Origin: a virus
IMG/VR virus record: IMGVR_UViG_3300006969_000007
DNA length: 36,782 nucleotides
Strand: one strand, 5' to 3'
In this document: piece by piece, positions 2,256 to 32,352 of the stretch
How the letters are laid out: the number at the start of each line of letters is the position of its first letter
Position numbering within the stretch: position 1 is the stretch's first letter
Translations under genes and position numbers: made by a program
The notes under the pieces: generated by a model
What the model was told of the DNA's origin: nothing
What the model saw: the letters and a program-made list of their open reading frames with translations, nothing else
The model's database searches: none

Positions 2256-3698
2256 TCACCGTTTTGGCATTATGGTACGAGCACCGCCAAGATTTATTGG
2301 TTGCATTGGTTCTTTTTTAGATACAGGAGGCTTCGATTCTCCAACAAATTTCTCTGCAAGTTTGTCTAATTCTGCTTGAGCTCTTTCCTCAACCAAAATA
2401 GCTAATTCTGCTGGTCGCTTACCACGATTCTCTTTAATAATTTCTTTCATAGCTTTGGCACGCGCATGTTCAGCTTCATTCGCTATCTTCATACTTCTGA
2501 TTATTTTCTTTTTTCCTGCGTCAGTATTTGAAAGCGTTGGTATCTGTTGCATAAATGCTCGAAGATCTTGGTCAGTAATGCGAGCACCAAAAATAGATTT
2601 TGCTCCAGAAATAAATTGGCTACTTAATTTTTCAAATTCTTCAGTGTCTGGTGATGTTAAACGCTGAATAGAGCGTAATACACCTACAACAGGGCTCACT
2701 AAACCTCCTATAGCACCGCCTACTGCGGTACCAACAGCTGCTCCTGGAGCAGCGGCAAGGCCGGCCGTGACGCCTCCTCCTAACAATCCTCCTATTACAC
2801 CACCAATTGCTCCTCCAGCGCCAACACCGGTCACCGGAGAAACATGTTCTTCTATATTTTTAAGACCGCTGTAATAGGCAGAAAAAGGCAAACTCCCCTC
2901 ATTAACTAATTTTAGCATTCTATCAAGGCGATTATCTGATTCTCGAGCTGCTTTATCAACTGACAAAACTTGGTCATAATATTTTTGCGTTTCTTTATGA
3001 GCAGCAGCTTCTTCTTTATGTAATTGTTTTTTTTGTTCGTGGGTTAAGATCTTTTTTTCTTTCTCAGCTTTTTTTTGTTCAACGGGAGTTAATTTTCTTT
3101 GTGGTGCTATTGCTTGCTGAACTGCTTGTTGTTCCTGTATTTGCTGCTGTACTGGTGAAGCAGCCATTTGAGGTGCCGCAGCTTCTTCAGGAATGTTCTC
3201 AACAGGTTGTTGAGCAGCCTGCAGTTGCTCTTGCATTGGCAGTTGAGGAGCATTTGGTAATTGGAACTGAGCATATGGAGCGCGATTAGTAACAGGAGCC
3301 TGTTCTTGTTCTTGTGCACCCATGAGTTGTGTAAGACCTTGGCCTTCTTGATTCTCTAATAATGGCAGTGCTTGTTCAGCTTGTTCCGGTGACATGTTAA
3401 ATAATGACTGCAAGTGACTTTTTTTCTGTTCACGCAGACGATCTTTGACCACATAATCAAGGATCTCTGGTTGCAATCCTGCAAGATGATGTGCTTCTTG
3501 TGCAGGGATATTCAATAAATGCTGCAAGCCAGAAGCAGTTTGTTGTTGCTTCCTACGTTGCGATAGTTCCTGTGCTCTGCCATGTATTAAACCACCTAAT
3601 ACACTCGAAACTGCATTGAAGTAGGGCGTTTCCTGTTCATATTTTTGTTGAGCGCTATAATCACGATTTCTATACGGATCATTAATAACCTGTGCCAT
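2256..3698 (-). CDS. Internal virion / ejection-like protein: Q-rich, with a Gly-rich hydrophobic segment
   Basis: 480-aa ORF with a TAATG overlap with the upstream gene. It has a GxxxG-rich stretch (GVGAGGAIGGVIGGLLGGGVTAGLAAAPGAAVGTAVGGAIGG) and lies within the tail operon. Confidence 0.6.
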   Translation of the reverse strand: MAQVINDPYRNRDYSAQQKYEQETPYFNAVSSVLGGLIHGRAQELSQRRKQQQTASGLQHLLNIPAQEAHHLAGLQPEILDYVVKDRLREQKKSHLQSLFNMSPEQAEQALPLLENQEGQGLTQLMGAQEQEQAPVTNRAPYAQFQLPNAPQLPMQEQLQAAQQPVENIPEEAAAPQMAASPVQQQIQEQQAVQQAIAPQRKLTPVEQKKAEKEKKILTHEQKKQLHKEEAAAHKETQKYYDQVLSVDKAARESDNRLDRMLKLVNEGSLPFSAYYSGLKNIEEHVSPVTGVGAGGAIGGVIGGLLGGGVTAGLAAAPGAAVGTAVGGAIGGLVSPVVGVLRSIQRLTSPDTEEFEKLSSQFISGAKSIFGARITDQDLRAFMQQIPTLSNTDAGKKKIIRSMKIANEAEHARAKAMKEIIKENRGKRPAELAILVEERAQAELDKLAEKFVGESKPPVSKKEPMQPINLGGARTIMPKR

Positions 3699-4690
3699 TA
3701 TACCCCCTTCTGAAGTCTTTTAAGTGCGATTAAATTAGCGAACGTATTGATCGATGGTTTTCTACCAGTCCCTTTTGTACGCGCATCCACAAGTGAGCCG
3801 GTTCTGTTTTTATTCAGTATTTGATTTACCACCGCTTCTTGTTGTTTTTTTGCTTTTCGATTGGCAAGGATTTGGCTAATACCAAAATCACCACCGCCTT
3901 GTAAATAACCTCCAAGCAATCCAGCACCTGTTTCAAGAGTCCGTTCACCAGTAGAAGGCATTTGCGGTAATGGTGGTTGTGCAGGGAAATAATGCTGTTC
4001 AGTTTGTGGTGTTAATCCCATTCTTAATAGATCAAGTGCTCGGCCTTGGTTCTCTAGTCCATACTGTGCTCGTAAGGCAGCAATGCCTTGGTCAAATTCT
4101 GATTGAGCACCAGCAAGAGATCCCGTAAGATCACTTGAATAACGAGTATCCGATCCACCAAGTGCAGAAAATCGTTCAGCAATACTGGGCAATGATTCAC
4201 TTTGAAACTTAGATCGTGCTTGTTGCTCAATGGGTTCAAATCCTCCGTACGGATTTTCCAGTTGAGATTTGCCCTGGCTGAGGAGATAATTCAAAACATT
4301 TTGTTGTTCTGGACTATAAAGATTCGGTGAGGTTTGGTAGCCACCTTCTGTGCCAAGCGTAGTAGCTCCTGGAGCACCCGCAGTTGCTGGTTGTCCAGCA
4401 GTACTTTGATCAGTAGGAGAAGGAACTTGAACGGTACTTGGATCTACATAGCCAGCAGGATATCTACCAAATTTTCTGTAATATTTGTCCGCTTTTTTTT
4501 GCGCTTTCAATGCAGCTTTTGCTTTTTTCTTTTCAGGATCTCTTCGGATACCGGATAAAAGTCCTGCCAATCCACCAATACCTGCACCGATTGCAGTTCC
4601 TATACCAGGAAAAATTGCTGATCCTACTGCTGCGCCCGTTGCAGCTCCTCCCAAACCACCACCAACCCCTTGGCTTGTATCATATGGCAT
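3698..4690 (-). CDS. Internal virion / ejection-like protein with a Gly-rich N-terminal hydrophobic segment
   Basis: ATG at 4690 lies 7 nt after GAGGAG; the track start at 4705 is a TTG. The N-terminus reads GVGGGLGGAATGAAVGSAIFPGIGTAIGAGIGGLAGLL. Confidence 0.6.
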   Translation of the reverse strand: MPYDTSQGVGGGLGGAATGAAVGSAIFPGIGTAIGAGIGGLAGLLSGIRRDPEKKKAKAALKAQKKADKYYRKFGRYPAGYVDPSTVQVPSPTDQSTAGQPATAGAPGATTLGTEGGYQTSPNLYSPEQQNVLNYLLSQGKSQLENPYGGFEPIEQQARSKFQSESLPSIAERFSALGGSDTRYSSDLTGSLAGAQSEFDQGIAALRAQYGLENQGRALDLLRMGLTPQTEQHYFPAQPPLPQMPSTGERTLETGAGLLGGYLQGGGDFGISQILANRKAKKQQEAVVNQILNKNRTGSLVDARTKGTGRKPSINTFANLIALKRLQKGV

Positions 4691-4701
4691 TACTATTCTC
4701 C

Positions 4702-5241
4702 TCAACTTTGCACATATTCAAGAATGATATACGTAATAGTAAAATTAGTTCTATTTGATCCCGTTATAATAGTGACATTTGTTCCATCAACTTTCAACTC
4801 TATTTCATTCGCATCAGTAGGAGAAGCATATGGCAACGGAATATAATTCCCTGCTGTATCAGTTGAGCATCCATAAATTCGTGTAAATGAAGTCATGGCT
4901 GTACACGTTATGCCGTGGGCCACTGCTTTTGTTCCCGTATTAGGCAATGAACCGAAATCAATTACTTTACGCCATATTTGTCTATCTTCAGCCGTTTGTG
5001 CCGTGGAAGATGTTAGTGCAGGATTACTGAAAAGAAGCTGTCCATTAACAAATTCTGTCAGCGGATATTGCCCCGTATCTTTTATGTTCAACAGATTCGC
5101 AATGTTATTTACCTGCTGATACAGCCGAACAAGAAGTTCTTTAAATGCAGGACTAGTAACATCAACATCGAGTAACTGAGAAATATCCCATACTTGGGTT
5201 GTTTGGATAAAGGCACCATACTGAATAGAATCTTGTGGCAT
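4702..5241 (-). CDS. Virion (tail) structural protein, function unassigned
   Basis: 179-aa ORF, translationally coupled (TAATG) with the upstream small gene. Confidence 0.6.
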   Translation of the reverse strand: MPQDSIQYGAFIQTTQVWDISQLLDVDVTSPAFKELLVRLYQQVNNIANLLNIKDTGQYPLTEFVNGQLLFSNPALTSSTAQTAEDRQIWRKVIDFGSLPNTGTKAVAHGITCTAMTSFTRIYGCSTDTAGNYIPLPYASPTDANEIELKVDGTNVTIITGSNRTNFTITYIILEYVQS

Positions 5242-11612: not shown

Positions 11613-12293
11613 TTAAGCTAATGTTGCGCGTAAGTTAATTACCCACAAGTCATTAGTAATTCTTGGAACTTCAGCAAATTTGTAACCAACCGACGCGTTC
11701 AACGCTAATGGTCCATCATAAATCGGTGGTCGATAAATAAAGCTTGCTGAGTAACCGTCTTGCTCAATGCATGCGTATGCTTCCATACCAACACAGAAAA
11801 TGTTGAATACATTGGCACCATTTGAAGATGCATTAGCAGTAAAGCTACCAATAGATGAAATCAAGAATCGAAGGTTACCAATAGCACCCCATTCTGAACG
11901 CAATGCATTCATTGGCGCAGGGTATTGGTTCTTTTGAATGAATCCAGCAACGGCATCAAGATTACCAGTCAATTGTGTTGAACATAATGCAAAGTATGCA
12001 TCACGAACTGGTGCTGTACCGAATTTGTCTTCACCTTCGATGTTGTCCATAATCGTGTACGCATTATTGTTTAATAAAGTACGAACGACAGCATCCACAT
12101 CAGAACGGGTAATTTCAGTCGGATTATCACCATTAACACCACCAACACTATTAATAAAACCAGCAGTTGCTGCTAACATATCACGAGTTAATTGGTCTTC
12201 GGTTTGACGAAGAGATACACCAAGACGAGCAGCACATTCATTAAGAACAGGATCTTGGTTCTGCAGTGTGCATTTAACTGTTACTTTTTTTGA
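11613..12293 (-). CDS. Major capsid protein, exon 2 (226 aa; HK97-fold / N4 gp56-like pattern)
   Basis: The frame is open from 12293. There is no start codon for the first 38 conserved codons (SKKVTVKCTLQNQDPVLNECAARLGVSLRQTEDQLTRD). The rest is the 188-aa track ORF. Confidence 0.75.
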   Translation of the reverse strand, partial: SKKVTVKCTLQNQDPVLNECAARLGVSLRQTEDQLTRDMLAATAGFINSVGGVNGDNPTEITRSDVDAVVRTLLNNNAYTIMDNIEGEDKFGTAPVRDAYFALCSTQLTGNLDAVAGFIQKNQYPAPMNALRSEWGAIGNLRFLISSIGSFTANASSNGANVFNIFCVGMEAYACIEQDGYSASFIYRPPIYDGPLALNASVGYKFAEVPRITNDLWVINLRATLA

Positions 12294-13125
12294 CCAAATA
12301 TTTTCTATTTGGCGGTTGGTCTTGTTATTCCCAACTCCCCTAGTCTCCTAAGGGATCGGACTGTCGCTTCACCTCTCGGTGTCCACTCGCCTCAGTCTCT
12401 CAGCGTGATAATTTAATTTATTTATGGTACGCTATATCCATACATTAAAATGAAGGAAAACTATGCATGACGAATTCTCATACTTATCACAAAATAATTC
12501 AGAGCAACAACTAATAAGAGATTTGAAAATAACAACTATGAGCTATCTTGCTGGAATTGTAGACGGAGAAGGATGCATTGGATTAGAACATCTTTCACCG
12601 ACTAAAAATAGAAAGAAAGATTATTACGTATGCCGACTTACCGTAGTTAACACCAGTGAAGAACTAATGAAGTTATTAGTGTCTAGCCTCAAAGGGCAAT
12701 ATGATACAAGAAAAAAGATAGAAGGCAGAAAGACTTGTTATAGATGGCATGTTTTTGGTAAAGACCTAGAACAAGCTATCTTGGCCTTGTTGCCTTATTT
12801 GCGTATCAAAAAGAAACAAGCGAAATTAGTTCTCGAATATAGAAATACAGTAGCAAGCAATGGTTGGCTCATTAGTGATGATGTACTTGCGCATAGAAAA
12901 ACCATTTGGATTGAATGTAAGAAATTAAATACCATAGGTGGTTAAATTATCTTCGCCCTTGTCGCCCTCGTCTTTACGTTAGGGCTTCCAAGTCAATCAG
13001 AGCGGATTTAAAGCAGGCCATTTACTGCTAAAACCAAGAAATTTCAAAGAACAATCGTCGTTAACCTGCTCGTTCAACTGTACATAGGTCTATAATAAGT
13101 CGAACTCATACGGCACCTACTTTTT
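12294..13125 (-). mobile_element. Group I-like self-splicing intron (832 nt) carrying an antisense LAGLIDADG gene
   Basis: P1 pairs exon/intron UACGGU|A with UGCCGUA (plus-strand 13125-13131 with 13109-13115), with U.G at the cleavage site. The intron ends in G at the tip of a 7-bp hairpin CCAAAUA/UAUUUGG (12294-12312). Further stems are 12315-12335, 12338-12354 and GUUCGAC/GUUGAAC. Joining the exons gives an in-frame 314-aa capsid protein. Confidence 0.65.
12463..12945 (+). CDS. LAGLIDADG homing endonuclease, single-motif (I-CreI-size, 160 aa), antisense to the capsid gene
   Basis: Contains the motif SYLAGIVDGEGCIG. SD AAGGAA lies 6 nt upstream of the ATG. It sits inside the capsid-gene interruption. 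Confidence 0.8.
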   Translation: MHDEFSYLSQNNSEQQLIRDLKITTMSYLAGIVDGEGCIGLEHLSPTKNRKKDYYVCRLTVVNTSEELMKLLVSSLKGQYDTRKKIEGRKTCYRWHVFGKDLEQAILALLPYLRIKKKQAKLVLEYRNTVASNGWLISDDVLAHRKTIWIECKKLNTIGG

Positions 13126-13389
13126 ACCGTAAAAACTAATAACTGCATCAATATCTACCGCAGTAAGATTTTGGGCAGGAGGAGTAATACCAGAATTCCC
13201 TAAAGGAACCATCGCTGTGTTAAGCGGATTGTATCGACGCATACGAAGAGTTGTACCACCATTACGCGGCATATTCTTCTTCATTGCGGGGATCTTATGG
13301 ATCATATTAGGAACTGGTACTGAAAGTAGTTTGTACGAGAAACTTTGCTGCACTGGTGCAGGCAGTGTACTCGTAGTTGTGATAGCCAT
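13126..13389 (-). CDS. Major capsid protein, exon 1 (88 aa, ends ...AVISFYG)
   Basis: AAGGAG lies upstream of the ATG at 13389. The N-terminal pattern is QQSFSYKLL...GGTTLRMRRY...LTAVDIDAVISFYG. The unspliced frame stops 2 codons later (TAG at 13117-13119). Confidence 0.75.
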
Positions 13390-18536: not shown

Positions 18537-18806
18537 TCAGTTAGAGCTCTTATTAGAATAGCTACTTCTGTTGTGTTCTTCGAGGAAGTTAAAGCCCCAT
18601 TCCATAAGGCAATCAGCATCATGACGGAGAGGATTTAATAAAGACAGTAAATCATCAACTGATTTAGCCAGATCAACATAGATAGAGAATCTTTTATCGT
18701 AAGAAATAGTTACATCGTCTTCAATTTCGTATACACATTCTCTTAATGAATCCAGTTGATCCACACCCCAATTAATGACATGTCGCTCAAGATCCTCAAA
18801 AGACAT
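18537..18806 (-). CDS. Acidic hypothetical protein, 89 aa
   Basis: Internal ATG of the 126-aa track ORF. I chose it because the 5' part of that ORF overlaps the tightly coupled 78-aa ORF. Confidence 0.4.
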   Translation of the reverse strand: MSFEDLERHVINWGVDQLDSLRECVYEIEDDVTISYDKRFSIYVDLAKSVDDLLSLLNPLRHDADCLMEWGFNFLEEHNRSSYSNKSSN

Positions 18807-19032
18807 CTTCTTCTTTTCTCTCTTCTTTGCTACCATAACTGCCCCTACATATCGTTTGTCTACAATCTGCACAAATTGATTCAATTTCACGATAAACCAA
18901 CGTTGTAACAAACTCATCGGTTGTGTTAACTGATTTTAGATTATCAGTTTTATCGGCTAAATAAAATTGATTATTTTCGGTGTGCTTTTGAGTACGATAA
19001 TGAGGAATAATGAAACCACGGCAGTCACGCAT
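18796..19032 (-). CDS. Small Cys-containing hypothetical protein, 78 aa
   Basis: ATG lies 2 nt after the terminase stop (TAATAATG), with GAAGG 9 nt upstream. Confidence 0.4.
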   Translation of the reverse strand: MRDCRGFIIPHYRTQKHTENNQFYLADKTDNLKSVNTTDEFVTTLVYREIESICADCRQTICRGSYGSKEERKEEDVF

Positions 19033-19034
19033 TA

Positions 19035-20444
19035 TTAATAACCTTCATTATTAAACATCCTTGGCAAATTGCTCTCGCTACCATATAATGCTTCACGGTA
19101 TCGTCGATCAAGTTCATCAGGAGAGGTACCATCTTTTGTTTTTGGTAGTGATATACAGAGATAGCGCATCGAATCCGCAAAATGGGAGGACCAATCGTGC
19201 AGTGGGCAGCTTTTATATACCTTGCGTTTCACATCATACTCTTGGCGGTAATTCTCAAGAGCCTTTAATAATGGCTCGCATGCTTTTACATCAATCCATA
19301 TTTTCCCTAAAGAGGATCGAACCGATTCAATCCCATCTTCGATAGAAACATCTGGTGCTATCGTAAAGCTAATTCCTAACTGTTTTGCTTTCTCGATCCG
19401 TGTCATACCAGAACCAAACTCACGAACGCGTATATCATGGGGCGCAATATGTTTTCCGTAGGTGTACGGCTTCTGCTGTAAGATCTTTGCATAATGCTCA
19501 AGACCTTCTTTATTCTTTTCATACACATCGATTAATCGTATCGCCTGACCAATCACCTGAAAGAAGATAATACAGGTATTATCGCGTACTCCCAAGTCCC
19601 ATGCAGTATGTACTTTGAACCCAGGCTCCCAAGGAACCATGCCAATTTGATTGTTTACCCGCATCCTATCAAGATATTTTGCGTAGTAAGAACCCTCGAC
19701 ACCCATGGTAAAACTGGTATAATACTCTTGTTGAATTAAATCTTCGCTCATTACTCCTTCTCTGCGTTCTTTTTCTATTTCAGAAAGTGGTATGTGATTA
19801 GTGTCTTCAATGGTGAGTTTATACACAAACCATTCAGGAGAATGAAGGGCTATCTGATACAGCTGCCACATATGATTTTTACCCCGAGGAGTAGAGATAA
19901 AAAGTGCCCAGCCTTGGTTCGCCGTCAGAATCGGTCGAATGTATTGATATGCCCTCTCATCCTGCAGTGCATACTCTGAGAATACTACTCCTTGTGGATT
20001 AGTACCCATCAGAGAATCATAGTTATCTGAACCAACTATTTGGAAGAGAGACCCGTTTTTAAAGCGGATCTTCATCTCCTGTCCATTCTTGGAATCTATT
20101 AATTCCTCAGGAATGTAATCTAAAATCCGTTCACCCGTGCTTGTTATTGAATCCCAAAGGATTTTCTTACCCGATGCGTAGGTAGGAAATATGTAAAATA
20201 TTACACACACTTTTCTTAAACAAGCACGAATGCACAGTTGAAAGGCAGTCATGTCCTTACCAGCTCGCCGAGGCAAGATAGCAAGAACCTTTTTGTAACC
20301 CTTATTCTCTATCGCATCAAGAATAGGAAGTTGATAGTCTCGTGGAACAAATTTATTCAATCGTATCTTCGTTTCTACGTTCAGGACAGTTTGCGTACCC
20401 GCAGCTGCAGTGTTCATATTTGCATTTAGCTTCATTGCATGCAT
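19035..20444 (-). CDS. terL: Terminase large subunit
   Basis: Walker A-like LPRRAGKD, an ATPase domain followed by an RNaseH-like nuclease domain (HTAWDLG, HDWSSHFADSMRY). AAGGAA lies 6 nt before the ATG. Confidence 0.9.
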   Translation of the reverse strand: MHAMKLNANMNTAAAGTQTVLNVETKIRLNKFVPRDYQLPILDAIENKGYKKVLAILPRRAGKDMTAFQLCIRACLRKVCVIFYIFPTYASGKKILWDSITSTGERILDYIPEELIDSKNGQEMKIRFKNGSLFQIVGSDNYDSLMGTNPQGVVFSEYALQDERAYQYIRPILTANQGWALFISTPRGKNHMWQLYQIALHSPEWFVYKLTIEDTNHIPLSEIEKERREGVMSEDLIQQEYYTSFTMGVEGSYYAKYLDRMRVNNQIGMVPWEPGFKVHTAWDLGVRDNTCIIFFQVIGQAIRLIDVYEKNKEGLEHYAKILQQKPYTYGKHIAPHDIRVREFGSGMTRIEKAKQLGISFTIAPDVSIEDGIESVRSSLGKIWIDVKACEPLLKALENYRQEYDVKRKVYKSCPLHDWSSHFADSMRYLCISLPKTKDGTSPDELDRRYREALYGSESNLPRMFNNEGY

Positions 20445-20928
20445 AGTGTTTCCTTAACCAGTATTTCAATATATAGTTAATAACCAAAAATATCAGACAA
20501 TGGAGAATGAAATTAAAAACCAAACACATACACCACATTATTCCCGATACTGTTACTGGTATTCTCCCTACAAATGAACACATCCAGTATATCCATCCGA
20601 CGTACGAAAATTGCAGCACTCCATGCCGTTTACGATAACACCACGAGGATGCTTCTGTACGGTTACAGGTAGTTTTATCACACTCATAGTGCTCTCTTAA
20701 CCAGTATTTCAATATAAAGTTAACAACCAAAAAAGTAGCAACGTGGAAAATGAACGACATCATTTGTGAGCCAAATGCCATTGTATATGAATAATGCCTC
20801 TCCAATCTATAGCACATTATTGTTGCTGGTACTAACACTAAAAATGAATACAACCAATACATCCATCCAACAAAGGTAAACTGATCTATACAATGCCGTT
20901 TACGATAACACCATCTATTATTGTTCAT
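20353..20928 (-). CDS. Polytopic membrane protein built from two tandem ~81-aa repeats with a Cys-rich tail
   Basis: WCYRKRH..QF..VGW.YW ... NFILKYWLR.HY.C occurs twice. Hydrophobic helices are present. The 3' end overlaps terL by 92 nt. Confidence 0.65.
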   Translation of the reverse strand: MNNNRWCYRKRHCIDQFTFVGWMYWLYSFLVLVPATIMCYRLERHYSYTMAFGSQMMSFIFHVATFLVVNFILKYWLREHYECDKTTCNRTEASSWCYRKRHGVLQFSYVGWIYWMCSFVGRIPVTVSGIMWCMCLVFNFILHCLIFLVINYILKYWLRKHYACNEAKCKYEHCSCGYANCPERRNEDTIE

Positions 20929-20938
20929 CGAGACTATC
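20453..20938. repeat. Tandem 243-bp in-frame duplication inside the membrane-protein gene
   Basis: CTTAACCAGTATTTCAATATA occurs at 20453 and 20696. ATGCCGTTTACGATAACACCA occurs in both copies. Confidence 0.8.
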
Positions 20939-20950
20939 TCCTTTTATGAG

Positions 20951-21988
20951 TTATTCTTTTTGTTCGTCAAGACCTTGTATTGCCCTAATTGATCTCTTCA
21001 ATTCATTATCACCAGATCGTCTATAATTAATACTTTTGTCACCAAAACGAGCAAGTGTTTTTGCATGTTTTTCACTCTGCGAAGCCATTTCTTTTTTTAT
21101 AAGAGCAAGTTCTTTCTGTTTTTGATTAAGCTTTTGATTTTGTTCACTTTTTAATATTTCTTCATGGAGTTTTGAAGCATTTTCTTGTATTTCTAAGTTA
21201 GCAGCATTGACCTTTAAATTCTGTTCAGCATACTCTAGGGCTTTTTGTCGATCTTCAGTGAGTTGACGCTGTTCTTCTTCTCGTGCCGCTGGCCCTCCTT
21301 TTAAAACATCAACAACTTTCTGAAAACCAATAGCAGCACCACCGCTACTTGCAGTGAAAACAACTCCATTCACCGCAATATTAGCAAGCTCTTTTGCTCT
21401 ATCCGAATTACTCATTTCTGCATCATTCATAACGTGCGCAACGCTCTTTGATGAACCAATAGTATTTGCCGCGCCGGATATTGCTATCTTGCCTAATCGT
21501 TTCGCGTGGTCAATCGTAGCATTTAATGCACTGTACGTCTCCTGATGAGGATTTGCGACCTCCGCAGAAACAATCGGTTCTACAGCTGGCGCATTAAAAC
21601 CTCTGGTTGTTTTATCATCAGTACCTTCATTTGATGAACCAATAGAAGCTGCCGCTCCTGACAGTACTACTTTAGTTGCAGTTGGCGTTGAAGAAACAGC
21701 GGCATTTAATGCATTGTACGCTTTCGTAGCTGCAGCAGAAGGATTTGCAGCTATTGCAGCAACAATCGGTGCAGCATATGGTGCCACAAGTACGGTAGCA
21801 GATCCAGCTACAGCTCCAATCGCAAAACTAGTAGCATCCTTTTTAAACTTCTGTGGTGTTCCGCTTACTCTACACATGCTTCTCATAATACCCCATCCAC
21901 CACTATATTTAGAATCGCATGTTTCCTCATTAGCAGAGAAGATCAATGATGATACGCAGAGTAATGACAAAGATAATAATTTATTCAC
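20951..21988 (-). CDS. Secreted protein with a signal peptide, an Ala/Ser/Gly-rich core and a C-terminal coiled coil
   Basis: N-terminus is MNKLLSLSLLCVSSLIFSANEE. The C-terminal third is E/Q/K heptads. Confidence 0.65.
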   Translation of the reverse strand: MNKLLSLSLLCVSSLIFSANEETCDSKYSGGWGIMRSMCRVSGTPQKFKKDATSFAIGAVAGSATVLVAPYAAPIVAAIAANPSAAATKAYNALNAAVSSTPTATKVVLSGAAASIGSSNEGTDDKTTRGFNAPAVEPIVSAEVANPHQETYSALNATIDHAKRLGKIAISGAANTIGSSKSVAHVMNDAEMSNSDRAKELANIAVNGVVFTASSGGAAIGFQKVVDVLKGGPAAREEEQRQLTEDRQKALEYAEQNLKVNAANLEIQENASKLHEEILKSEQNQKLNQKQKELALIKKEMASQSEKHAKTLARFGDKSINYRRSGDNELKRSIRAIQGLDEQKE

Positions 21989-22043
21989 AGTTAATCCTAA
22001 TTTACTTTAATACTATTGTGATTGTTCAGAATAAGATTCATCT

Positions 22044-23294
22044 TTAAAAGAGATTTCTTCGTTTCGCTGCTTTCGGCGCTTCCTGTGGAGCTACTTGAGG
22101 AGCTGCTGCTTGAGAAGCTAATTTCTTTTGTTGAGATAATTCAAATATCTGACGCAGTGATGGCGCTGCGACTGGAGCAGATTGCTGAACCACGGGCGCT
22201 GCTGCCTTTGGAGCCGCTTGAACAGCTTTAGGAGCAGGAGCCGGGGCTTGTTTTACGGGCGCTGCTTTTTGAGCCGCTGGCGCCGCTGCTGGTTTTTTAG
22301 TTACCGGTGCTGGTGCCGCTTTTGCTGCTGCCTTTGGCGCTGCAGCAGGTGCTGATTCTCGTTTTACAGGCGTTGCTCCCTTATAAGCACCGGATTGAAC
22401 TGGCGCTATATCATCATATACAGCGCTATAAATTTTACAGCTATCATTCCCACCTGTGCGCTCAAAACGAGCCGGTTGTGGTGGTGTATAATTACTATCC
22501 ATATTCACTTTATATGCTCCATCTGCACCAATTGAAAGTCTAGGATCAAGAATACTGGATTCCCCCCAACCCAAAGGATGCCTTGATAGTGCTGTGCCCC
22601 CCAAAGCACATTCCGCCTTAGAAGTCGGTGCCGGATCACTACCAGTATATAAATCACGAACCATTTGATCATTTATCTCTTGCTCTCTTCTATACTGAGC
22701 GCCTCTACAATCTCTACAAGGTTCACGAGTAGCGCCTATTGAATCCGCAGTGGCATTAATAGCCGCTTTCGTAACCTGTCCACCAACTTCTCCAAGAGCT
22801 CCGGCAACAATTGCTTCTAACGCCCACATCATATTATGAGTCAAAACACCATCAACGAATAACTGATGAACCGATGCAATGTTCACCATACGTGTTTTCA
22901 TTGCCAAGCCACTCTTTCTTTTCACATCAAGGATAGTAATTGGCAATAGATCACCGCCAAATAATGCATTCTGGGCAGTAAGATCTTCTGCCTTTATCCA
23001 TTCTTCTTTTAATGGATCAAAAAACAATTGATCTGGTGCTGCTTTGATTCTTCGTTTTCCCAAATTGATTTGTATTGTTGAGTTTCTCCTGCCACCACAC
23101 TGGTTCATCAGGACTCGCTCGTGTGCAAGACCGTTCATCTCTCTGTTCGCAGAAAGAACGCGCTCACCTACCATAACTTCGTGTAACATTTTTACGCCAG
23201 AACCGGATTGTACTAATGCATCGCCTGGTATAACCGCAGCGATAGGATTGGAAAGTGCGACAAGAATCGTCGACATCTTTAAATGATATTTCAT
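22044..23294 (-). CDS. Hint (Hedgehog/intein-like) domain protein with a Pro/Ala/Lys-rich C-terminal region
   Basis: ATG at 23294 lies 4 nt after GGAGC. It has a hydrophobic leader. The Hint-like blocks are GDALVQSGSGVKMLHEVMVGERVLS ... VNIASVHQLFVDGVLTHN, ending in the intein-type HN. The low-complexity segment reads APAAAPKAAAKAAPAPV... Confidence 0.65.
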   Translation of the reverse strand: MKYHLKMSTILVALSNPIAAVIPGDALVQSGSGVKMLHEVMVGERVLSANREMNGLAHERVLMNQCGGRRNSTIQINLGKRRIKAAPDQLFFDPLKEEWIKAEDLTAQNALFGGDLLPITILDVKRKSGLAMKTRMVNIASVHQLFVDGVLTHNMMWALEAIVAGALGEVGGQVTKAAINATADSIGATREPCRDCRGAQYRREQEINDQMVRDLYTGSDPAPTSKAECALGGTALSRHPLGWGESSILDPRLSIGADGAYKVNMDSNYTPPQPARFERTGGNDSCKIYSAVYDDIAPVQSGAYKGATPVKRESAPAAAPKAAAKAAPAPVTKKPAAAPAAQKAAPVKQAPAPAPKAVQAAPKAAAPVVQQSAPVAAPSLRQIFELSQQKKLASQAAAPQVAPQEAPKAAKRRNLF

Positions 23295-23348
23295 GTTGCT
23301 CCCTGAAATATACTCGTATATGATTTTAAACACTGCTCTGCTTTACTA

Positions 23349-23588
23349 CTACCGCAAAAATTTAGTCTGTATTTCCTCCATTTCTTGCACGTAATTGTTG
23401 TAAATTTCTTGGCACATAATCTCTTCTTCACCTATAAGCACGGTTGCCCAAAGGCTTATCGACCAACTCATGATATCCCGTATACCCCACGAAGATGAAG
23501 ATCGACAAACGAAAGAATGAGTATCAGTTGCTGAAAGAGATCCAGCAAGTAACATAATTATCGAACATCGTATCATCATACGTTTCAT
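23349..23588 (-). CDS. Small secreted/membrane-anchored protein
   Basis: ATG at 23588 lies after AGGAC. The signal-like leader is MKRMMIRCSIIMLLAGSLSA. Confidence 0.5.
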   Translation of the reverse strand: MKRMMIRCSIIMLLAGSLSATDTHSFVCRSSSSWGIRDIMSWSISLWATVLIGEEEIMCQEIYNNYVQEMEEIQTKFLR

Positions 23589-23748
23589 GTACGTCCTAAA
23601 ATGTAATGAGTTATCGCACATCACTGTAGCGGTAATTTTTAAAAAATAAAGAGCGTTTTTGCCAAAAAAATGATTTTAGGAACAAAATAAAAAAAACTGC
23701 ATTCAGCGTGTAACGTGAAGGGAAAAAACATTCCTAAAAGTTGCGTGA

Positions 23749-24351
23749 TTATTCTTCAGTTTTTTTAGGAGGCACTAATGGTGAGTTGGGATAGTTTTCC
23801 AATATTACTTGTATCGGTTGTGTTTGATGTGCATCATTTTTTGCTGCAAGGGAAGAACGCCATTCCTCTGTCTCTTTCCATTCCTTGCTGTACACGCATT
23901 GGATCTTCATAACCATAGCACTGTTGTATTTGTTCAGGAGCCCACCCTTTTCTCTGCGCATCGCAATAATTTCACGGACAAACGATTGAGCACTTTTCAA
24001 TTTCGAAGATCGATTTACCCAATCTTCCCATGTTGTTTGTGGTATACCTTTTTGCATACGATATTCATTCATAAACAGAATGTCATCATTATTGTATGTC
24101 ATATTCACCCACTCAATAGCACACTTGGTTAAATACTCTGGTGAAATTGGTGTCGTTACAAAAGTGAACATATCCTCATAACATTCTTGATCATACGTTT
24201 TTAAAGGCGGTTTTAAAGCGACTAAAACCCGTTTTTTTGCCTGTTTGTGTACTTGCTTTATAGTATTAGGTATTTTCTTGTCCATTGTGGCAGTTCCTGT
24301 TCGGCGTTTTTCTTTTGCCATTTTTTTCTGTAATGTGCTCATTCGTTCCAT
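23749..24351 (-). CDS. Terminase small subunit-like DNA-binding protein
   Basis: ATG at 24351 lies after AAAGGAAC. MNEYRMQKGIPQTTWEDWVNRSSKLKSAQSFVREIIAMRREKGGLLNKYNSAMVMKIQCVYSKEWKE matches the HTH plus oligomerisation pattern of TerS families, as I recall it. Confidence 0.5.
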   Translation of the reverse strand: MERMSTLQKKMAKEKRRTGTATMDKKIPNTIKQVHKQAKKRVLVALKPPLKTYDQECYEDMFTFVTTPISPEYLTKCAIEWVNMTYNNDDILFMNEYRMQKGIPQTTWEDWVNRSSKLKSAQSFVREIIAMRREKGGLLNKYNSAMVMKIQCVYSKEWKETEEWRSSLAAKNDAHQTQPIQVILENYPNSPLVPPKKTEE

Positions 24352-24415
24352 GATGTTCCTTTCTGATGTTAGGATATCAGTGTGTGATGAAACGTCACGA
24401 ACTCGTGAGGATCTG

Positions 24416-25375
24416 TCACGGGTTGGTCGCCGCCACAATATCTCTTATCTGCTGTTGCTCCACCGGAGTGCAATGGGATAATAGGCCATCAGCGAAGATC
24501 GCCAAGAAGGGATTAGGACTCTTCTTGAGTTGTAACTGCATCTTCAATGCCTTTTCAAAATGACTCTCTGATTCACGTTTCTCTTCTGGTTTATATAGTG
24601 CATAAGGTCCATCTTTTGGTCTCACGTATGTATGAGCCTTTCCCGTTTCAGTAGTTTTTTTATTCTTAAATCCTGCAGACTGCGTCATACCAAATGGTTG
24701 CTCGTCAGCAAGTGGCGTTGCCTTTGCAGCTTCTTGCCTGAAAATCCCCATAAAGTATGCAGGTTGATTGCAGATTGCAGTTCCTTCTTTTAATTTCTTA
24801 CGAAATTGGATGAGCGATTTCTCGTAAACCCACCCCGGGTAGCTTCGCACCTCGATGAGTTGCTCCGCAGTCAGTTGCTCCATGATAATTTTATCCCTCG
24901 AAAAGGTCTTAGCAATTAAATTATCTACCTTTTCTTTTAATAGGTACCGATTTTCCTTTTTAGGTCTAGACAACAACAAAAAAAAGAGGGAGAGGTCTAC
25001 TATCTGTCTAACCAATGAGGATAATTCTCTTCTTTTTTTATAGTAAAACTGATGCATCCTGAATACGAGTGTTTTACGATACCCACGATACTCAGTCTGT
25101 ATGATATTGAGTTCCTTAAGACGATTGATTGCTGCTTGAACCGTAGAGCGAGCGCAGTTAGCCATTTTTGCGAGCAAAGACAAAGAAGGGAAAACACCAG
25201 CGTGTTTAACCACAAGCTGCATGACACAATCAAACACTCTAATGTGTGATTTGGTAAGATTATCTTGAAGAAACTCACGGAAATATTTTGTTTGATTTTT
25301 TTTTAGTTGACAATCGAATAAATTGCCATTATTATTGCTATACGAATTGATTGAAATAACAAAATGATTAGACAT
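24416..25375 (-). CDS. Winged-HTH replication-initiator-like protein
   Basis: 319 aa. The wHTH segment reads FPSLSLLAKMANCARSTVQAAINRLKELNIIQ. The C-terminal ICNQPAYFMGIF is Rep-like. Repeats lie upstream. Confidence 0.5.
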   Translation of the reverse strand: MSNHFVISINSYSNNNGNLFDCQLKKNQTKYFREFLQDNLTKSHIRVFDCVMQLVVKHAGVFPSLSLLAKMANCARSTVQAAINRLKELNIIQTEYRGYRKTLVFRMHQFYYKKRRELSSLVRQIVDLSLFFLLLSRPKKENRYLLKEKVDNLIAKTFSRDKIIMEQLTAEQLIEVRSYPGWVYEKSLIQFRKKLKEGTAICNQPAYFMGIFRQEAAKATPLADEQPFGMTQSAGFKNKKTTETGKAHTYVRPKDGPYALYKPEEKRESESHFEKALKMQLQLKKSPNPFLAIFADGLLSHCTPVEQQQIRDIVAATNP

Positions 25376-28663: not shown

Positions 28664-29896
28664 CTAGACGTAATAAAGTCCTTGGATAAGCATACTGTGA
28701 TAAACGCTTGGCGTATTTATAAATAAAGTACTGGTGATAGCAAAAGCATTTCCTGATGATAAATTATTAAGTTGTGCCTGAATAGACATCGTTGTGGTTC
28801 CCGCCACAAATCTACACCATGTATACTGATTACTCCCTAAACTATTAAGTCTATTTTCACCCCATCCTGCTGTTTCCATGAAAAATGATCCATGAGCATT
28901 AGAAACAGTAAATGGTAATCCAGATATGGTAGCAGCTAATCCTCCTGTAGAACCTGAATATTGTGGACTTATATAAATATTTATAAATACAATACTCCCC
29001 ATGCGTACATACCAACCATATCTATTACCAGCAAAATAACTAATCCCAGAAGATGAACCGCCCAAAAGTAAAGAGGGCGTAAAGGTACCGTTTGAATAAT
29101 TCGGTAATGCACCACTTCCCGTGCCAGTTATAGTTACGGTGCTTCCTGCAGCAGATATGGATGTTCCCGTGCCAGAAGCAAAAGTTATAACGCCCGCAGC
29201 AGGAGTAGCGGTTCCCGTCGCAGGACTCGTTATATAACTTTGAGCAATATTAGAGCCAGCAGTTACCGTAACGGTCGAACCCGCACCACTGGTAGAAATA
29301 GAGTTAGAACCATATATATTCAATACACCAGCAACCGGAACTGCTGTACCAGCCTGGGTTAAGAATGATGTTGCATTGGCTCCTGATTGAGAAATGGTCA
29401 ATGTTGAAGTACCGGGATTACCGGCAACAGAGATCGTTCCCGCACCAAGTATGTTAATATTACCGGCTGTTTCGCCAACAGCACCGCCACTATTGCCAGT
29501 TAATGTTAACGCAGCACCACCACCGATAGCGCTCATCGTTAACGTAGAAGTGCCTGGATTACCCGTTATATTTACCGTGGTACCATCACCTACTACATTG
29601 ATATTACCAGATAAGGGTAATACCAAGCCACCAGAGTTACCGGTTAATGAAAGCAATCCAGTACCTGATCCTTGTACCTGTATCCAGGTAGCGGTCAAAC
29701 CATTTGTTACTGCAAGATACCATATGGAATTGTCAGAAGTATTAAGCCACCAATCACCACGATTAAATTCACGAGCATCATCTACCGTAGGAGCTGAAGA
29801 AGCCATGGTAAAGTTGGTAGGTTGAACAGCATTGGCACCAATATATGACAAGGGTGTAAATCCATTAAGTCGTTGATTCTGATTATTACTAGACAT
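28664..29896 (-). CDS. Tail fibre paralog 3 (410 aa)
   Basis: Has the shared N-terminus QRLNG(F/L)(T/N)PLSY(I/L)G, repeated modules TGNSGG...GNIN.VG...GNPGTSTLT, and a divergent C-terminal domain. Confidence 0.8.
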   Translation of the reverse strand: MSSNNQNQRLNGFTPLSYIGANAVQPTNFTMASSAPTVDDAREFNRGDWWLNTSDNSIWYLAVTNGLTATWIQVQGSGTGLLSLTGNSGGLVLPLSGNINVVGDGTTVNITGNPGTSTLTMSAIGGGAALTLTGNSGGAVGETAGNINILGAGTISVAGNPGTSTLTISQSGANATSFLTQAGTAVPVAGVLNIYGSNSISTSGAGSTVTVTAGSNIAQSYITSPATGTATPAAGVITFASGTGTSISAAGSTVTITGTGSGALPNYSNGTFTPSLLLGGSSSGISYFAGNRYGWYVRMGSIVFINIYISPQYSGSTGGLAATISGLPFTVSNAHGSFFMETAGWGENRLNSLGSNQYTWCRFVAGTTTMSIQAQLNNLSSGNAFAITSTLFINTPSVYHSMLIQGLYYV

Positions 29897-29905
29897 ATGG
29901 AACTC

Positions 29906-31129
29906 CTAAATTAAATAACAACCAGAAACGGTAAATGTAGAACCATTTTGTAGATTATTTGATATGAAAAATGGCGCTGATTTAGCACCTGCTCCCAAAA
30001 ACGATCCAGTGTAAGGGTTACCCATGACAAGACCAGCACCAAATATAACATACCAATAAAGAATATTACCGACTGGTATATTATATTGATAACTCGTTAT
30101 AGGAGTTGAAAAAGTAACTTGAGGACTCCCATAAGCAGCAGGATAAGAAGGGACGGTAAACGGAAGTCCACTAAGAATTGTGGTGCCAACAATAGTAGGA
30201 GCCCACGTTGCTATAGCAATATCAATCTGAACAAAAACAAAATTACCTATCTGAACATATTGACCATTTTGACGTGTATAAGTAATACCTGCAGTACCTG
30301 CAGAGGTCCTTAAAATCGGTACAAATGATCCTGTTGAATAAGTAGGAGTCGCACCACCACTACTTGTTATGGTCACCGTACTTCCCGCTGCTGACATGGT
30401 AATGCCACCAGCTCCTGCAAAAGTTAATACGCCAGCTGCTGGTATCGCCGTTCCCGTAGCTGGACTCGTTTTATAACTTTGTGATAATGTTCCACCTGCT
30501 ACCACGGTGACAGTAGATCCTACACCAGTCGTTGATAGTCCATTTGATCCATTGATGGTAAGAGCGCCTGCAACAGGTATTGCTGTGCCAGATTGAGTAG
30601 GAAATGACTGAGCAACAATACCACTTTGACTTACTGTCAACGTCGAAGTTCCTGGATTACCCGCAACAGATATGGGCGCTGTACCAATGATATTTATGTT
30701 ACCCATAGTCGGGCCTACTGCGCCACCACTATTACCAGTGAGTGTACTCGTCGCTGGCGCACCGACAGCAGATATCGTCAACGTACTTGTTCCTGGATTA
30801 CCCGCAATATTCATTGATACCCCATCACCAACAACATTAATGTTGCCAAGTGTTGGTGGTACGGGACCACCGGTGTTTGCTGTTAACGTTTCAACAGCAC
30901 CACTCATGGCAGATACATTAATCCACGTAGCAGATCCATTAGTAAGCGCTGCCAAATAAAATAAACTGTTTGTATCCGTATTAAGCCACCAGGTACCCAA
31001 ATAAAAATTATTAAAATCGGTCGTTAATGGATCTCTGGGTAGTTTTATAAAATCAGTAGGTTGATATGCATCAACACCTAGATATGATAAAGGATTGAGA
31101 CCATTCAATCGTTGATTCACTCGTGACAT
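29906..31129 (-). CDS. Tail fibre paralog 2 (407 aa)
   Basis: Same architecture as 28664..29896, with a distinct C-terminus. Confidence 0.8.
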   Translation of the reverse strand: MSRVNQRLNGLNPLSYLGVDAYQPTDFIKLPRDPLTTDFNNFYLGTWWLNTDTNSLFYLAALTNGSATWINVSAMSGAVETLTANTGGPVPPTLGNINVVGDGVSMNIAGNPGTSTLTISAVGAPATSTLTGNSGGAVGPTMGNINIIGTAPISVAGNPGTSTLTVSQSGIVAQSFPTQSGTAIPVAGALTINGSNGLSTTGVGSTVTVVAGGTLSQSYKTSPATGTAIPAAGVLTFAGAGGITMSAAGSTVTITSSGGATPTYSTGSFVPILRTSAGTAGITYTRQNGQYVQIGNFVFVQIDIAIATWAPTIVGTTILSGLPFTVPSYPAAYGSPQVTFSTPITSYQYNIPVGNILYWYVIFGAGLVMGNPYTGSFLGAGAKSAPFFISNNLQNGSTFTVSGCYLI

Positions 31130-31146
31130 ATACTATCTCTCCTTTA

Positions 31147-32352
31147 TTACATAAAATACATGCCATAAAATGTAAATGATGTAGTACTTAAAAAGTGATT
31201 TGTTTGTACAATACCCCCAGCCACCAGTGGGCCCCCATATCGTAACGTTCCTGTCGTAGCACCAGGAGTAAATCTAACCCAAAAATATGTCGTTCTTCCT
31301 GCTGCAAAAAGAACATTGCTCACTGGCGTTAAAATATTAAATTGATGACTATCCATAAAAGAAGTAACCACATTAGATACCGTAAATGGCAAATCTTCAA
31401 TCAACACATTATTAATAGGTGCTGGCCATCCTGTTAGAGTAATGTTCGCGGTAACATACACCATAGTACCTATTTGTGTATAAATACCCAGTTGCTTTGA
31501 ATAGGTTATACCGGCTCTATTACCATTAATAGATAGTGCCGGAGTCCAGTTACCCGTTGAGTAGGAAGGAACCCCCCCTCCAGTTACACTAAATGTTACG
31601 GTACTGCCTGCAGCAGAAGCAGTTGAGTTAGCCCCTGAGGCGAACGTTAGCACTCCTGCAGCCGGCACCGCTACGCCGGTCGCAGGGCTGGTGATAAAAC
31701 TTTTTGCTAACGCAGAACCACCAATAACCGTAACCGTATTCCCGACACCCATCGTTGATAATCCATTGGAACCATTAACAGTCAAGACACCCGCTACTGG
31801 TGTCGCAGTCCCTGCTTGGGTAATAAATGAATTAGCAACCGCACCCGATTGCGTAATAGTAAGCGTAGAAGTACCAGGATTACCTGCAATGGAGAGGGTA
31901 CCAGTACCAACTAAATTTATATTGTCCGCTGTAGGAAAAACCGGACCGCCCGTATTACCAGTTAATGAACTGATCACTGATGATCCAATAGCAGAAACGG
32001 TTAGCGTATTAGTTCCAGGATTACCTATTACGAGTACCGTAGTAACATCTCCCACAAGATTAATATTGCCAGCTGTTGGGCTGACGGGGCCACCACTGTT
32101 ACCCGTTAATGTTTGTATACCAGGAACAGATGAAGATATATTAATCCACGAAGCAACCCCATTACGTAATGATGCTAAATAAAAAAGAGAGGTCGTAGCG
32201 CTATTAAGCCACCACGAACCTACATACACATTCCTATTATCACTCGTCTCTGGATTCCTTGGTTGTATAACGATATTCGTTGGCTGAACCGCATCAAACC
32301 CAAGATAGGATAATGGGTTTAAACCATTCAATCGTTGATCTATCTTAGGCAT
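31147..32352 (-). CDS. Tail fibre paralog 1 (401 aa)
   Basis: Same architecture as 28664..29896, with a distinct C-terminus. Confidence 0.8.
   Translation of the reverse strand: MPKIDQRLNGLNPLSYLGFDAVQPTNIVIQPRNPETSDNRNVYVGSWWLNSATTSLFYLASLRNGVASWINISSSVPGIQTLTGNSGGPVSPTAGNINLVGDVTTVLVIGNPGTNTLTVSAIGSSVISSLTGNTGGPVFPTADNINLVGTGTLSIAGNPGTSTLTITQSGAVANSFITQAGTATPVAGVLTVNGSNGLSTMGVGNTVTVIGGSALAKSFITSPATGVAVPAAGVLTFASGANSTASAAGSTVTFSVTGGGVPSYSTGNWTPALSINGNRAGITYSKQLGIYTQIGTMVYVTANITLTGWPAPINNVLIEDLPFTVSNVVTSFMDSHQFNILTPVSNVLFAAGRTTYFWVRFTPGATTGTLRYGGPLVAGGIVQTNHFLSTTSFTFYGMYFM

Follow-up and report, generated by a model that had tools for sequence, protein, structure and literature searches.

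Bacterial intein-like (BIL) domains of the A type retain a conserved His-Asn pair, cleave at their C-terminal end through the asparagine and are found in the hypervariable regions of non-conserved bacterial proteins (PMC7765530). In polymorphic toxins, a Sec signal peptide can be combined with a HINT domain that immediately precedes the variable C-terminal domain (PMC3482391, Table 1 and discussion), and MafB consists of a signal peptide, a conserved domain, an A-type BIL domain and a variable C-terminus, and is followed by MafI (PMC4287609). Here, we analyse the virus record IMGVR_UViG_3300006969_000007 of IMG/VR, a stretch of 36,782 nt referred to below as the window, in which an island of four minus-strand genes separates a gene that very probably encodes the small terminase subunit (TerS), to judge from its position and weak homology, from the gene of the large subunit (TerL). 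One of the four genes encodes a protein in which a predicted signal peptide passes directly into a Hint domain of the A-type BIL kind; the following gene encodes a partner, D345. The parts are of known kinds, namely a BIL/PT-HINT domain, a TerS and an accessory-gene hot spot. Their combination, a nucleophile-less BIL domain placed after a signal peptide in a tailed phage together with a fixed, fast-evolving partner, is new in the collections searched, as is, beside this pair, a copy-number-variable membrane protein fused into the start of terL. No such arrangement for release by a Hint domain was found in the deposited phage genomes or in the literature searched.

The Hint protein and its partner

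The Hint protein (C416; 416 residues; 22044..23294, minus strand) is made of a leader, a Hint domain and a variable C-terminus. Its first 20 residues (MKYHLKMSTILVALSNPIAA, followed by V; 23235..23294) are predicted to be a Sec signal peptide on account of a positively charged n-region, a hydrophobic core of 9–10 residues and small residues at −1 and −3, a layout that is kept in all seven members of the family despite identities of 23–88%. Residues 21–154 (22833..23234), which end in His153-Asn154, constitute the A-type BIL/PT-HINT domain. A profile built from the seven N-terminal sequences matched, over profile positions 22–157, the BIL domains 6TMM/6Y75 (E = 7e-11) and 2LWY (E = 1.4e-7) in the PDB. 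The Pfam model PT-HINT recognizes the window protein with E = 7e-4 and 20.3 bits, under the gathering score of 27.7, and is matched by four of six family members, the best value being 6.6e-7.

The predicted signal-peptide cleavage site coincides with the first residue of the Hint domain, leaving no N-extein. This residue, canonically Cys1, is Val in four homologues, Ala in two and Asn in the protein of locus L012. Block B reads AxxQ (A-P-D-Q) with an invariant Gln, where the solved BIL domain has TxxH (T-V-N-H). The C-terminal block GVL(T/V/C/N)HN followed by M(D) is, by comparison, retained in six of the seven family members, and in the alignment GVLtHNM falls on GVLAH-A-M at the C-terminal end of the crystal construct. 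Since both Cys1 and the block-B His are lost while His-Asn is kept, only C-terminal cleavage is plausible, and the domain would thus be able to cut a single junction, that between N154 and M155 (window 22833/22832). The protein of the more distant relative L012 (14234–14902; 222 residues) has a leader and a Hint-like region with neither the His-Asn pair nor a C-terminal extension, and its gene is situated downstream of the portal gene rather than between terS and terL.

Beyond the junction, residues 155–416 (262 residues; 22044..22832) form a hypervariable fragment that starts with a Gly/Ala-rich hydrophobic stretch and contains 22% Ala and 10% Pro. The leader and Hint domain together are 90, 63, 44, 38 and 34% identical to their counterparts in the relatives L090, L105, L106, L010 and L011, respectively, as against 56, 20, 29, 18 and 20% for the C-terminal fragment. 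The break is equally visible in the DNA: a 94%-identical block common to the window and L090 stops precisely at the HN–M junction (22830). No toxin or other domain was found for the fragment in Pfam, NCBIfam, PADLOC or the PDB. When the window signal peptide and Hint domain were used as a tblastn query, none of 50,697 deposited phage genomes gave a match. A word-indexed protein search returned three proteins for the full Hint protein, low-complexity words having swamped the candidates, and none for the Hint domain alone.

The gene D345 (345 residues; 20951..21988, minus strand) lies immediately downstream. Its product has a leader (residues 1–19), two cysteines (Cys24/Cys39), a Gly/Ala-rich hydrophobic stretch at about residues 52–80 and a coiled-coil-like C-terminus. 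An N-terminal leader is present in six of six aligned D homologues, and the leaders of Hint and D homologues alike keep small residues at −1 and −3. In five of the six, the leader is soon followed by a Cys pair, which would be consistent with an oxidizing compartment; the 180-residue form of L090 is devoid of that segment. The homologues display one or more Gly/Ala-rich hydrophobic stretches, to which those of L010 and L011 add a Pro/Ala/Lys-rich linker, and all aligned members share the coiled-coil-like C-terminal region and an (S/A)EQNxK motif. Identities among relatives are 21–37% (29, 21 and 24% for L106, L010 and L011; 23% for L090). The idea that the D-like proteins of L010 and L011 are mere analogues was rejected, since the common (S/A)EQNxK motif and the scores of the family hidden Markov model point to homology. 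D345 also carries an internal direct duplication within 21447–21720, with a period of 183 nt (for example, 21447–21486 and 21630–21669 are 80% identical); the L090 homologue is missing the whole middle part that contains it. No holin, spanin, immunity or other specific family matched D345. One D homologue touches phrog_10341, labelled 'endolysin', an identity that was rejected, since a glycine-zipper protein of the window matches the same model in its Gly stretch; we read the match as Gly-rich low complexity, the aligned region of the D homologue not being displayed.

Closer relatives of the phage were found by exact-protein look-ups and one metagenome scan. In all six in which the Hint–D part of the gap between terS and terL can be read (L010, L011, L090, L105/L091, L106 and L108), the Hint and D genes are adjacent and in the same order. 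The window carries B79, a Hint protein of 416 residues, a D protein of 345 and an E protein (E191) of 191 residues with two repeated units. In L108, whose A200 (the TerS-like protein) is 93% identical, an 89-residue gene at the B79 position is followed by Hint (416), D (345) and two tandem E genes. The partial contig L090, which starts inside B79, contains the C-terminal part of this gene, Hint (411), D (180) and a partial E; the partial contig L105/L091 contains Hint (449), D (281) and E (192). L106, with a TerL 95% identical to that of the window, has Hint (390), D (274) and a single-unit E (103), while L010 and L011 (TerL 92% identical) have an acidic ORF (open reading frame) of 60–63 residues, Hint (555 residues, or about 513 from the aligned Met) and D (252/277), and no E. 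A member of the E family (191) is present in a further partial contig, L107, after a partial ORF of 252 residues and a NUDIX gene, neither of which is Hint or D. As for B79, its C-terminal 60 residues are identical in L090; the 89-residue gene of L108, recognized by position and not by sequence, is probably its counterpart, whereas L010 and L011 have their acidic, soluble ORF at this position and L106 has no gene there. The preliminary description of this DNA had presented a single inserted cargo island. The comparison shows instead three units, B79, Hint+D and E, which occur in differing combinations; B79 is the least constant of them, and E is separate and tied to terL. The fragment of the Hint protein and D change much more rapidly than other parts of the genome: Hint and D are only 20–45% identical between phages whose TerL proteins are 92–95% identical.

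The island and the terS–terL junction

Read along the minus strand, the region comprises a Rep gene (HTH_36; 24416–25375), A200, B79, the Hint gene, D345, E191 and terL. As the preliminary description had it, four genes with the features described there stand between A200 and terL: the ORFs are all found on the minus strand at the coordinates it gave, each is preceded by a Shine-Dalgarno sequence (4/4) and the Hint match is borne out. It had probably begun the smallest, 23349..23624, too far upstream, although the gene itself is upheld. The start of B79 (23349..23588, minus strand; 79 residues) is most likely the ATG at 23588, which has AGGA 5 nt upstream, while the GTG/ATG at 23624/23621 have no Shine-Dalgarno sequence. 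According to hydropathy, B79 has moderately hydrophobic segments at residues 4–20 and 39–53; it ends in an acidic tail and appears to be a small membrane protein. It matched no family in Pfam, PHROGs, NCBIfam or PADLOC, and in the same collections none of the four proteins matched a virion or DNA-metabolism family, in agreement with what had been stated; the PADLOC and NCBIfam matches that island proteins did give were discarded as noise. The sequence between A200 and B79 (23589..23748, minus strand), read directly, is an A+T-rich non-coding spacer. A scan of the region, this spacer included, for promoter and terminator consensus sequences gave nothing above chance.

By a hydropathy rule, all four island proteins contain a hydrophobic segment, compared with 26 of 182 ORFs (14%) in the equivalent gap of relatives and with 3 of 33 other genes of the window genome, in none of which it is N-terminal; the leader of the Hint protein passes only a shorter, laxer hydropathy window. 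The clustering of such proteins in the island exceeds chance, and an island of purely envelope-directed proteins would be unusual for this site. All four proteins had been predicted to leave the cytoplasm. Their features indeed suggest that all are directed to the envelope, but only part of E191 is likely to leave the cytoplasm, since its Cys-rich tail is predicted from the positive-inside rule to be cytoplasmic. The ratio of non-synonymous to synonymous substitution rates (dN/dS) is 0.27–0.50 for E191 and for both parts of the Hint gene.

E191 (191 residues; 20353..20928, minus strand) is an internal duplication of two tandem two-helix units (residues 6–95 and 96–191), evident at both the DNA and the protein level, the two halves being conservatively diverged copies. 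In each unit, a WCYRKRH head and a KYWLRxHYxCxxxxC tail flank two hydrophobic helices, and the last unit ends in C-x4-C-x4-C-x-C-x4-C. The same positive-inside rule would place the Cys/His segments in the cytoplasm. Gene callers dropped E191 in five of six identical contigs, probably owing to its overlap with terL. Even so, the gene is real: it is the only long ORF there, its halves have diverged conservatively and its dN/dS against the L105 homologue is 0.43. An interpretation of the repeats as a DNA element, such as a pac site, was rejected on similar grounds: the frame is kept, the substitutions are conservative or synonymous and dN/dS is again 0.43. When 1.84 billion representative proteins were searched exhaustively with HMMER, five matches to E191 were obtained at E ≤ 0.001, three of them credible and two short ones in much longer proteins; tblastn against deposited phages gave no match. 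Every E homologue with known context (L105, L106, L107 and L108) adjoins terL on its upstream side and overlaps it. The copy number varies, from one unit in L106 (6001–6312) through two in the window, L105 and L107 (1247–1822) to two complete genes in L108 (9421–10564), where the duplicated segment extends from the ribosome-binding site of E to about codon 22 of terL. Selection on dosage or repeat-driven recombination could account for this variation.

The terL gene (19035..20444, minus strand) forms the downstream boundary of the island; its product matches phrog_2 with E = 1.8e-33, and tblastn retrieved 1504 phage records annotated as terminase large subunit. The 3′ end of E191 and the 5′ end of terL overlap by 92 nt in different frames (20353..20444, minus strand). 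The start of terL is the ATG at 20444, with AAGGA 6 nt upstream; from the next ATG (20417), which has no Shine-Dalgarno sequence, the overlap would still be 65 nt. The stop codon of E191, TAA, is formed by the AAT AAA (Asn-Lys) codons of the TerL motif RLNKF, and the closest relatives have N-K or N-R at this place. In relatives, terL usually starts 1–5 codons before NVETKIRL; in the window this ATG is lost (ACG), and both start and Shine-Dalgarno sequence lie inside E191. The overlap had been taken to weld the island into the packaging operon. It is real, and the gene is indeed fused into the start of terL, but this is not special to the island: in this phage family many different upstream genes end at the same TAA, commonly about 25 nt into the conserved N-terminus of TerL. 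E191 is also bracketed by a 23-nt inverted repeat with 19 of 23 positions complementary (20328–20350 and 20921–20943). The arm at 20921–20943 holds the Shine-Dalgarno sequence and start of E191; its complement is found 570 nt downstream, in the terL codons for KFVPRDYQL. L105 and L108 have retained the repeat, L106 has a weaker form of it and L107 has none; no compensatory changes were seen.

The upstream boundary is A200 (200 residues; 23749..24351, minus strand), described from the outset as TerS-like. Eighty viral contigs with a TerL 64–92% identical were fetched and their ORFs searched iteratively. The A200 family was found in 70 of these 80 loci, always upstream of terL and on the same strand. 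In about 20 of the 70 it abuts or overlaps terL, its stop codon falling inside the terL start in 17, and it most often ends 25 nt beyond the codon that corresponds to TerL residue 23. The Pfam family PF16677 (GP3_package), which is the TerS family of P22 gp3 and Sf6 gp1, is matched by 5 of 56 A200-family members, with a best E of 1e-4; A200 of the window itself reaches no TerS model. With hhalign, its helix–turn–helix region falls on Sf6 gp1 with E = 0.003 and a probability of only 10%. The AlphaFold2 model of A200 has a helical core (residues 70–135) with a per-residue confidence (pLDDT) of about 90. Searched with Foldseek against the PDB, this model gave no significant match (best E 0.9), and two TerS or TerS-like entries came up only at E 3.5–6.4. 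The A200 profile found no TerS in the PDB, and tblastn of A200 against deposited phages gave no match.

It had been assumed that terS and terL are normally adjacent in such phages. This is not so in the lineage examined: the two genes abut in only about 20 of 70 relatives and are separated by 185–5313 nt in the other 50; the distance is 3371 nt in the window. The comparison of synteny, which the preliminary description had proposed, thus reveals a variable insertion site. Of 126 longer gap ORFs scanned, most belong to no family; the others include HNH endonucleases (at least eight), DNA methyltransferases, primase fragments, RusA, DUF551, GroEL and two M15-type endolysins. The junction is therefore a hot spot of recombination and gene turnover with mostly cytoplasmic contents. 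The GroEL match (Cpn60_TCP1, E = 1.8e-76; phrog_5725, E = 8e-162) is probably L087 241–1878, the only ORF of 545 residues among those scanned, the tables naming no member. Matches to Peptidase_M15_4 or 'endolysin' occur in the gap of two loci. In L088 (4004–5834), an ORF of 161 residues with an N-terminal hydrophobic anchor is followed by membrane proteins, and its H-x6-D and D-x-x-H motifs make it a candidate M15-type peptidase. In L077 (7134–7857), a protein of 132 residues that combines a transmembrane segment with a coiled coil precedes a 70-residue lipoprotein with an LAGC lipobox. The junction between terL and the portal gene likewise varies in length among relatives (0 to about 5 kb); that of the window contains an ORF of 126 residues (18537–18917), homologues of which are present in 4 of the 80 loci (L010, L011, L046 and L079).

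The window carries an identical 123-nt direct repeat at its two ends (1–123 and 36660–36782), so the genome is complete and circularly closed, at about 36.66 kb. Its portal protein is of the P22 type (Pfam, E = 1.9e-71) and its large terminase of the Pelagibacter HTVC010P/Stenotrophomonas BUCT type; the lineage is one of widespread uncultured podophages. Identical TerL proteins were found in 22 public contigs, and six loci taken from samples in JGI, ENA and Logan show 100% identity to the window across 20300–24500. GenBank phages share no DNA with it except for a weak terL match. No integrase was seen among the ORFs of the circularized genome, for which reason the phage looks virulent. The genome has no tRNAs, and Rfam detected no intron or other RNA family in the window at gathering score. 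Models of endolysins, holins and spanins matched no gene of the complete genome. The metagenome-assembled genome bins that contain related contigs are inconsistent as to the host, being assigned to Chitinophagaceae, Saccharibacteria, Gemmatimonadales, Bathyarchaeia and Simkaniaceae. AAGGAG is strongly used, with a Shine-Dalgarno sequence at 31 of 38 candidate starts checked, which argues only against hosts poor in such sequences, for example Bacteroidota.

Several other features of the genome were recorded. The ORF at 1301–2251 (316 residues, with a leader) has no match in the PDB or, by tblastn, in deposited phages. A protein of the virion module (2256–3698) matches DUF6861 (E = 4e-7), and its neighbour (3698–4705) has an N-terminal glycine-zipper stretch, to which its matches with tape-measure and tail-lysin PHROGs are confined. 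The ORFs 13117–13389 (90 residues) and 11613–12179 (188 residues) form the opposite ends of a structural gene of about 315 codons that is a single uninterrupted ORF in 11 relatives; in the window (11613–13389) it is interrupted by about 0.9 kb holding, on the opposite strand, an ORF for a LAGLIDADG endonuclease (12463–12945, plus strand; Pfam, E = 1.4e-4), and about 39 codons are unaccounted for. Finally, three consecutive genes at 28664–32352 (410, 407 and 401 residues) have a near-identical N-terminal motif, QRLNGxxPLSYxG...WWLN, and look like paralogous fibre or receptor-binding proteins.

Possible roles of the island

The preliminary description had suggested a phage that remodels the host envelope or supplies exported effectors, which may be so. 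The explanation to which we incline, though without regarding it as established or even as probable, is that the Hint protein and D345 are an exported effector and its partner, which together alter the envelope of the infected cell. The island would then be an envelope module of the late operon, lodged in the recombination hot spot between terS and terL. Devoid of its N-terminal nucleophile and of the block-B His, the Hint domain would neither splice nor cut at its N-terminal side; instead, Asn154 would cyclize and cut once, between N154 and M155. The reaction would free a largely unstructured, Ala/Pro-rich polypeptide of 262 residues with a Gly/Ala-rich hydrophobic new N-terminus, which is more likely to be active on the membrane or in the periplasm than to be an enzyme. 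This fragment and the exported D345 would act jointly at the envelope, D345 serving perhaps as an anchor or as a neutralizer of the effector. Such a change late in infection may exclude other phages, mask the cell against them or assist the exit of progeny. E191 would be a separate polytopic membrane protein with cytoplasmic Cys/His motifs, whose gene supplies terL with its ribosome-binding site and start codon. What the analysis establishes is how the genes are built, that the domain belongs to the Hint family, which motifs it keeps, how the genes are arranged in relatives and how they diverge; export, self-cleavage, an interaction within the pair and its biological role are inferred.

Several observations weigh against this proposal. 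Self-cleavage was deduced from motifs only, and the block-F His is present in three homologues and replaced by Arg in three. Export was judged from sequence features and their conservation across diverged homologues, and the AlphaFold2 model of the Hint protein, computed from a three-sequence alignment, had a pLDDT of 36 and was unusable. The fragment is of low complexity, carries no toxin domain and does not resemble known polymorphic toxins; D is itself exported by its sequence features and matches no immunity family, and there are no orphan C-terminal or partner cassettes. That no integrase was seen, and that the genes lie in the late packaging operon, weakens a role in exclusion or competition, and the near-universal occurrence of the pair among close relatives would be more natural for an essential function than for cargo.

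Alternatively, the island may be a lysis cassette or most of one, with B79 and/or E191 as holin or antiholin, D345 as a protein like an inner-membrane spanin, anchored at its N-terminus and with a periplasmic coiled coil, and the Hint protein delivering a membrane- or wall-active fragment. Although we consider this, the most serious of the rival readings, doubtful as a whole, a role in lysis is about as compatible as exported effectors with the position and the late-operon context, because the gap of relatives holds lysis-type genes (M15 'endolysin' matches in two loci; the candidates of L088 and L077) and the genome has no other recognizable lysis gene, none of its genes matching an endolysin, holin or spanin model. 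Indeed, the genome encodes no small multi-helix membrane proteins other than B79 and E191; B79 and the E unit have the general shape of holins (small, transmembrane, with a charged C-terminus), though neither matches a holin family. The island is in the late operon and translationally coupled to terL, and Hint+D occurs throughout the close clade. D345 fits loosely the description of i-spanins as class II membrane proteins with periplasmic coiled coils (PMC6139136), but at about twice their typical size. However, the island has no muralytic domain anywhere, no holin or spanin match in PHROG or Pfam and, since no frame contains an ORF with a lipobox, no candidate o-spanin. L010 and L011 keep Hint+D without a small membrane protein in the gap, and the two readable ORFs upstream of E in L107 are neither Hint nor D. 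Besides, Hint domains are not known in lysis, and the Cys/His motifs of E191 would be unusual for a holin. It is tempting to imagine a variant of this scheme, in which Hint+D, with E and/or B79, would be an exit system independent of an endolysin, and the Sec-exported Hint domain a one-shot self-cleaving timer; a membrane-active Ala/Pro-rich fragment would be released into the periplasm and breach the envelope with its coiled-coil partner. Such a system would explain the absence of matches to lysis models, the clade-wide presence of the pair and its location where relatives keep lysis genes, but we regard it as a speculation with little chance of being correct.

The divergence break exactly at the predicted cleavage site, together with the order of signal peptide, HINT domain, variable C-terminus and variable downstream gene (PMC3482391; PMC4287609), recalls polymorphic toxins, and Hint+D might be toxin–immunity cargo, the fragment (perhaps a pore former) killing or inhibiting competitors while D345 or E191 protects the producer. 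The Gly/Ala-rich hydrophobic start of the fragment and the membrane proteins encoded downstream would suit this notion, the immunity proteins for pore formers being membrane proteins. Yet no toxin or immunity family is matched, the fragment is long and of low complexity, a carrier or delivery domain is lacking and, with no integrase seen, there would be no long-lived producer cell to protect. Nor do the two proteins co-vary as expected, the fragments of the window and L090 being 56% identical but the D proteins 23% (345 against 180 residues). We hold this explanation to be improbable. To a similar degree it seems unlikely that the four genes are a passive set of unrelated morons with no joint function, whose common envelope targeting is coincidental. 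It is true that the hot spot at this junction is proven and holds a very mixed set of genes, and that B79, Hint+D and E occur in differing combinations; against this, Hint and D invariably stand side by side in one order, a hydrophobic segment is found in 14% of the hot-spot ORFs of relatives as opposed to all four here, and all four genes have Shine-Dalgarno sequences, with dN/dS values of 0.27–0.50 for E191 and both Hint parts. Least credible of all is the view that the four are virion or ejection proteins or packaging-linked assembly factors, despite their position inside the packaging and morphogenesis operon, the constant coupling of E191 to terL and the Gly-zipper stretch that the virion-module protein 3698..4705 also possesses. 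They match no structural family, and the cleavable-looking Sec leaders and polytopic topology would be unexpected for the contents of a tailed-phage capsid. Furthermore, the island genes are absent from most relatives with 65–80% identical TerL and portal, and their extreme divergence stands beside a TerL that is 95% identical.

Should the Hint protein indeed be exported and cleave itself as predicted, the stripped-down Hint domain would be a pure C-terminal release device acting after Sec export, with a fast-evolving payload and partner. This would imply that the HINT-processing logic of polymorphic toxins reaches into envelope conflicts between phage and host, or into lysis, and the domain would represent a compact natural self-cleaving secretion tag. 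The terS–terL junction is a major site of gene turnover in this lineage, which bears on the search for missing lysis genes, and the loss of E191 by gene callers, probably through its overlap with terL, bears on annotation.

Relation to known systems

As with P22 gp3 and Sf6 gp1, genes of the A200 family stand directly upstream of terL and often overlap it by tens of nucleotides; in P22, gene 3 overlaps gene 2 by 23 nt. Unlike these small terminase genes, A200 of the window is 3.4 kb away from terL. The junction resembles the accessory-gene hot spots (morons and homing endonucleases) at terminase genes in that its length in close relatives lies anywhere between 0 and more than 5 kb and that HNH endonucleases, methyltransferases and many small ORFs are present. 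It departs from them in that the content of the window appears to be directed entirely to the envelope and that Hint+D is a fixed, not a patchy, component of the close clade. With lysis cassettes made of holin, endolysin and Rz/Rz1, the island has in common small membrane proteins and an apparently anchored coiled-coil protein beside the packaging genes, expression late in infection, rapid evolution and a gap in which relatives have lysis-type genes, but it has no muralytic enzyme or outer-membrane lipoprotein, and it includes a Hint protein.

The class 1 MafB/MafI systems of Neisseria offer a parallel in the succession of signal peptide, BIL/HINT domain, variable C-terminus and variable downstream gene, as well as in a divergence break at the processing site. 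In contrast with MafB, the Hint protein has no conserved carrier domain such as DUF1020 and no toxin fold in its C-terminal region; in contrast with MafI, D345 is itself predicted to be exported and membrane-associated, and matches no immunity family. The genes are moreover part of a phage late operon and are accompanied by no orphan cassettes. The A-type BIL domains provide the remaining comparison. From these, the window domain differs by its place directly after the signal peptide, by Val or Ala instead of Cys at residue 1, by AxxQ instead of TxxH and by being encoded in a tailed phage between terS and terL. It agrees with them, and with PT-HINT, in its significant profile match and in the C-terminal His-Asn followed by a non-nucleophilic residue (Met) and, as in A-type BIL proteins, it is situated at the border between the conserved and the hypervariable parts of a predicted secreted protein.

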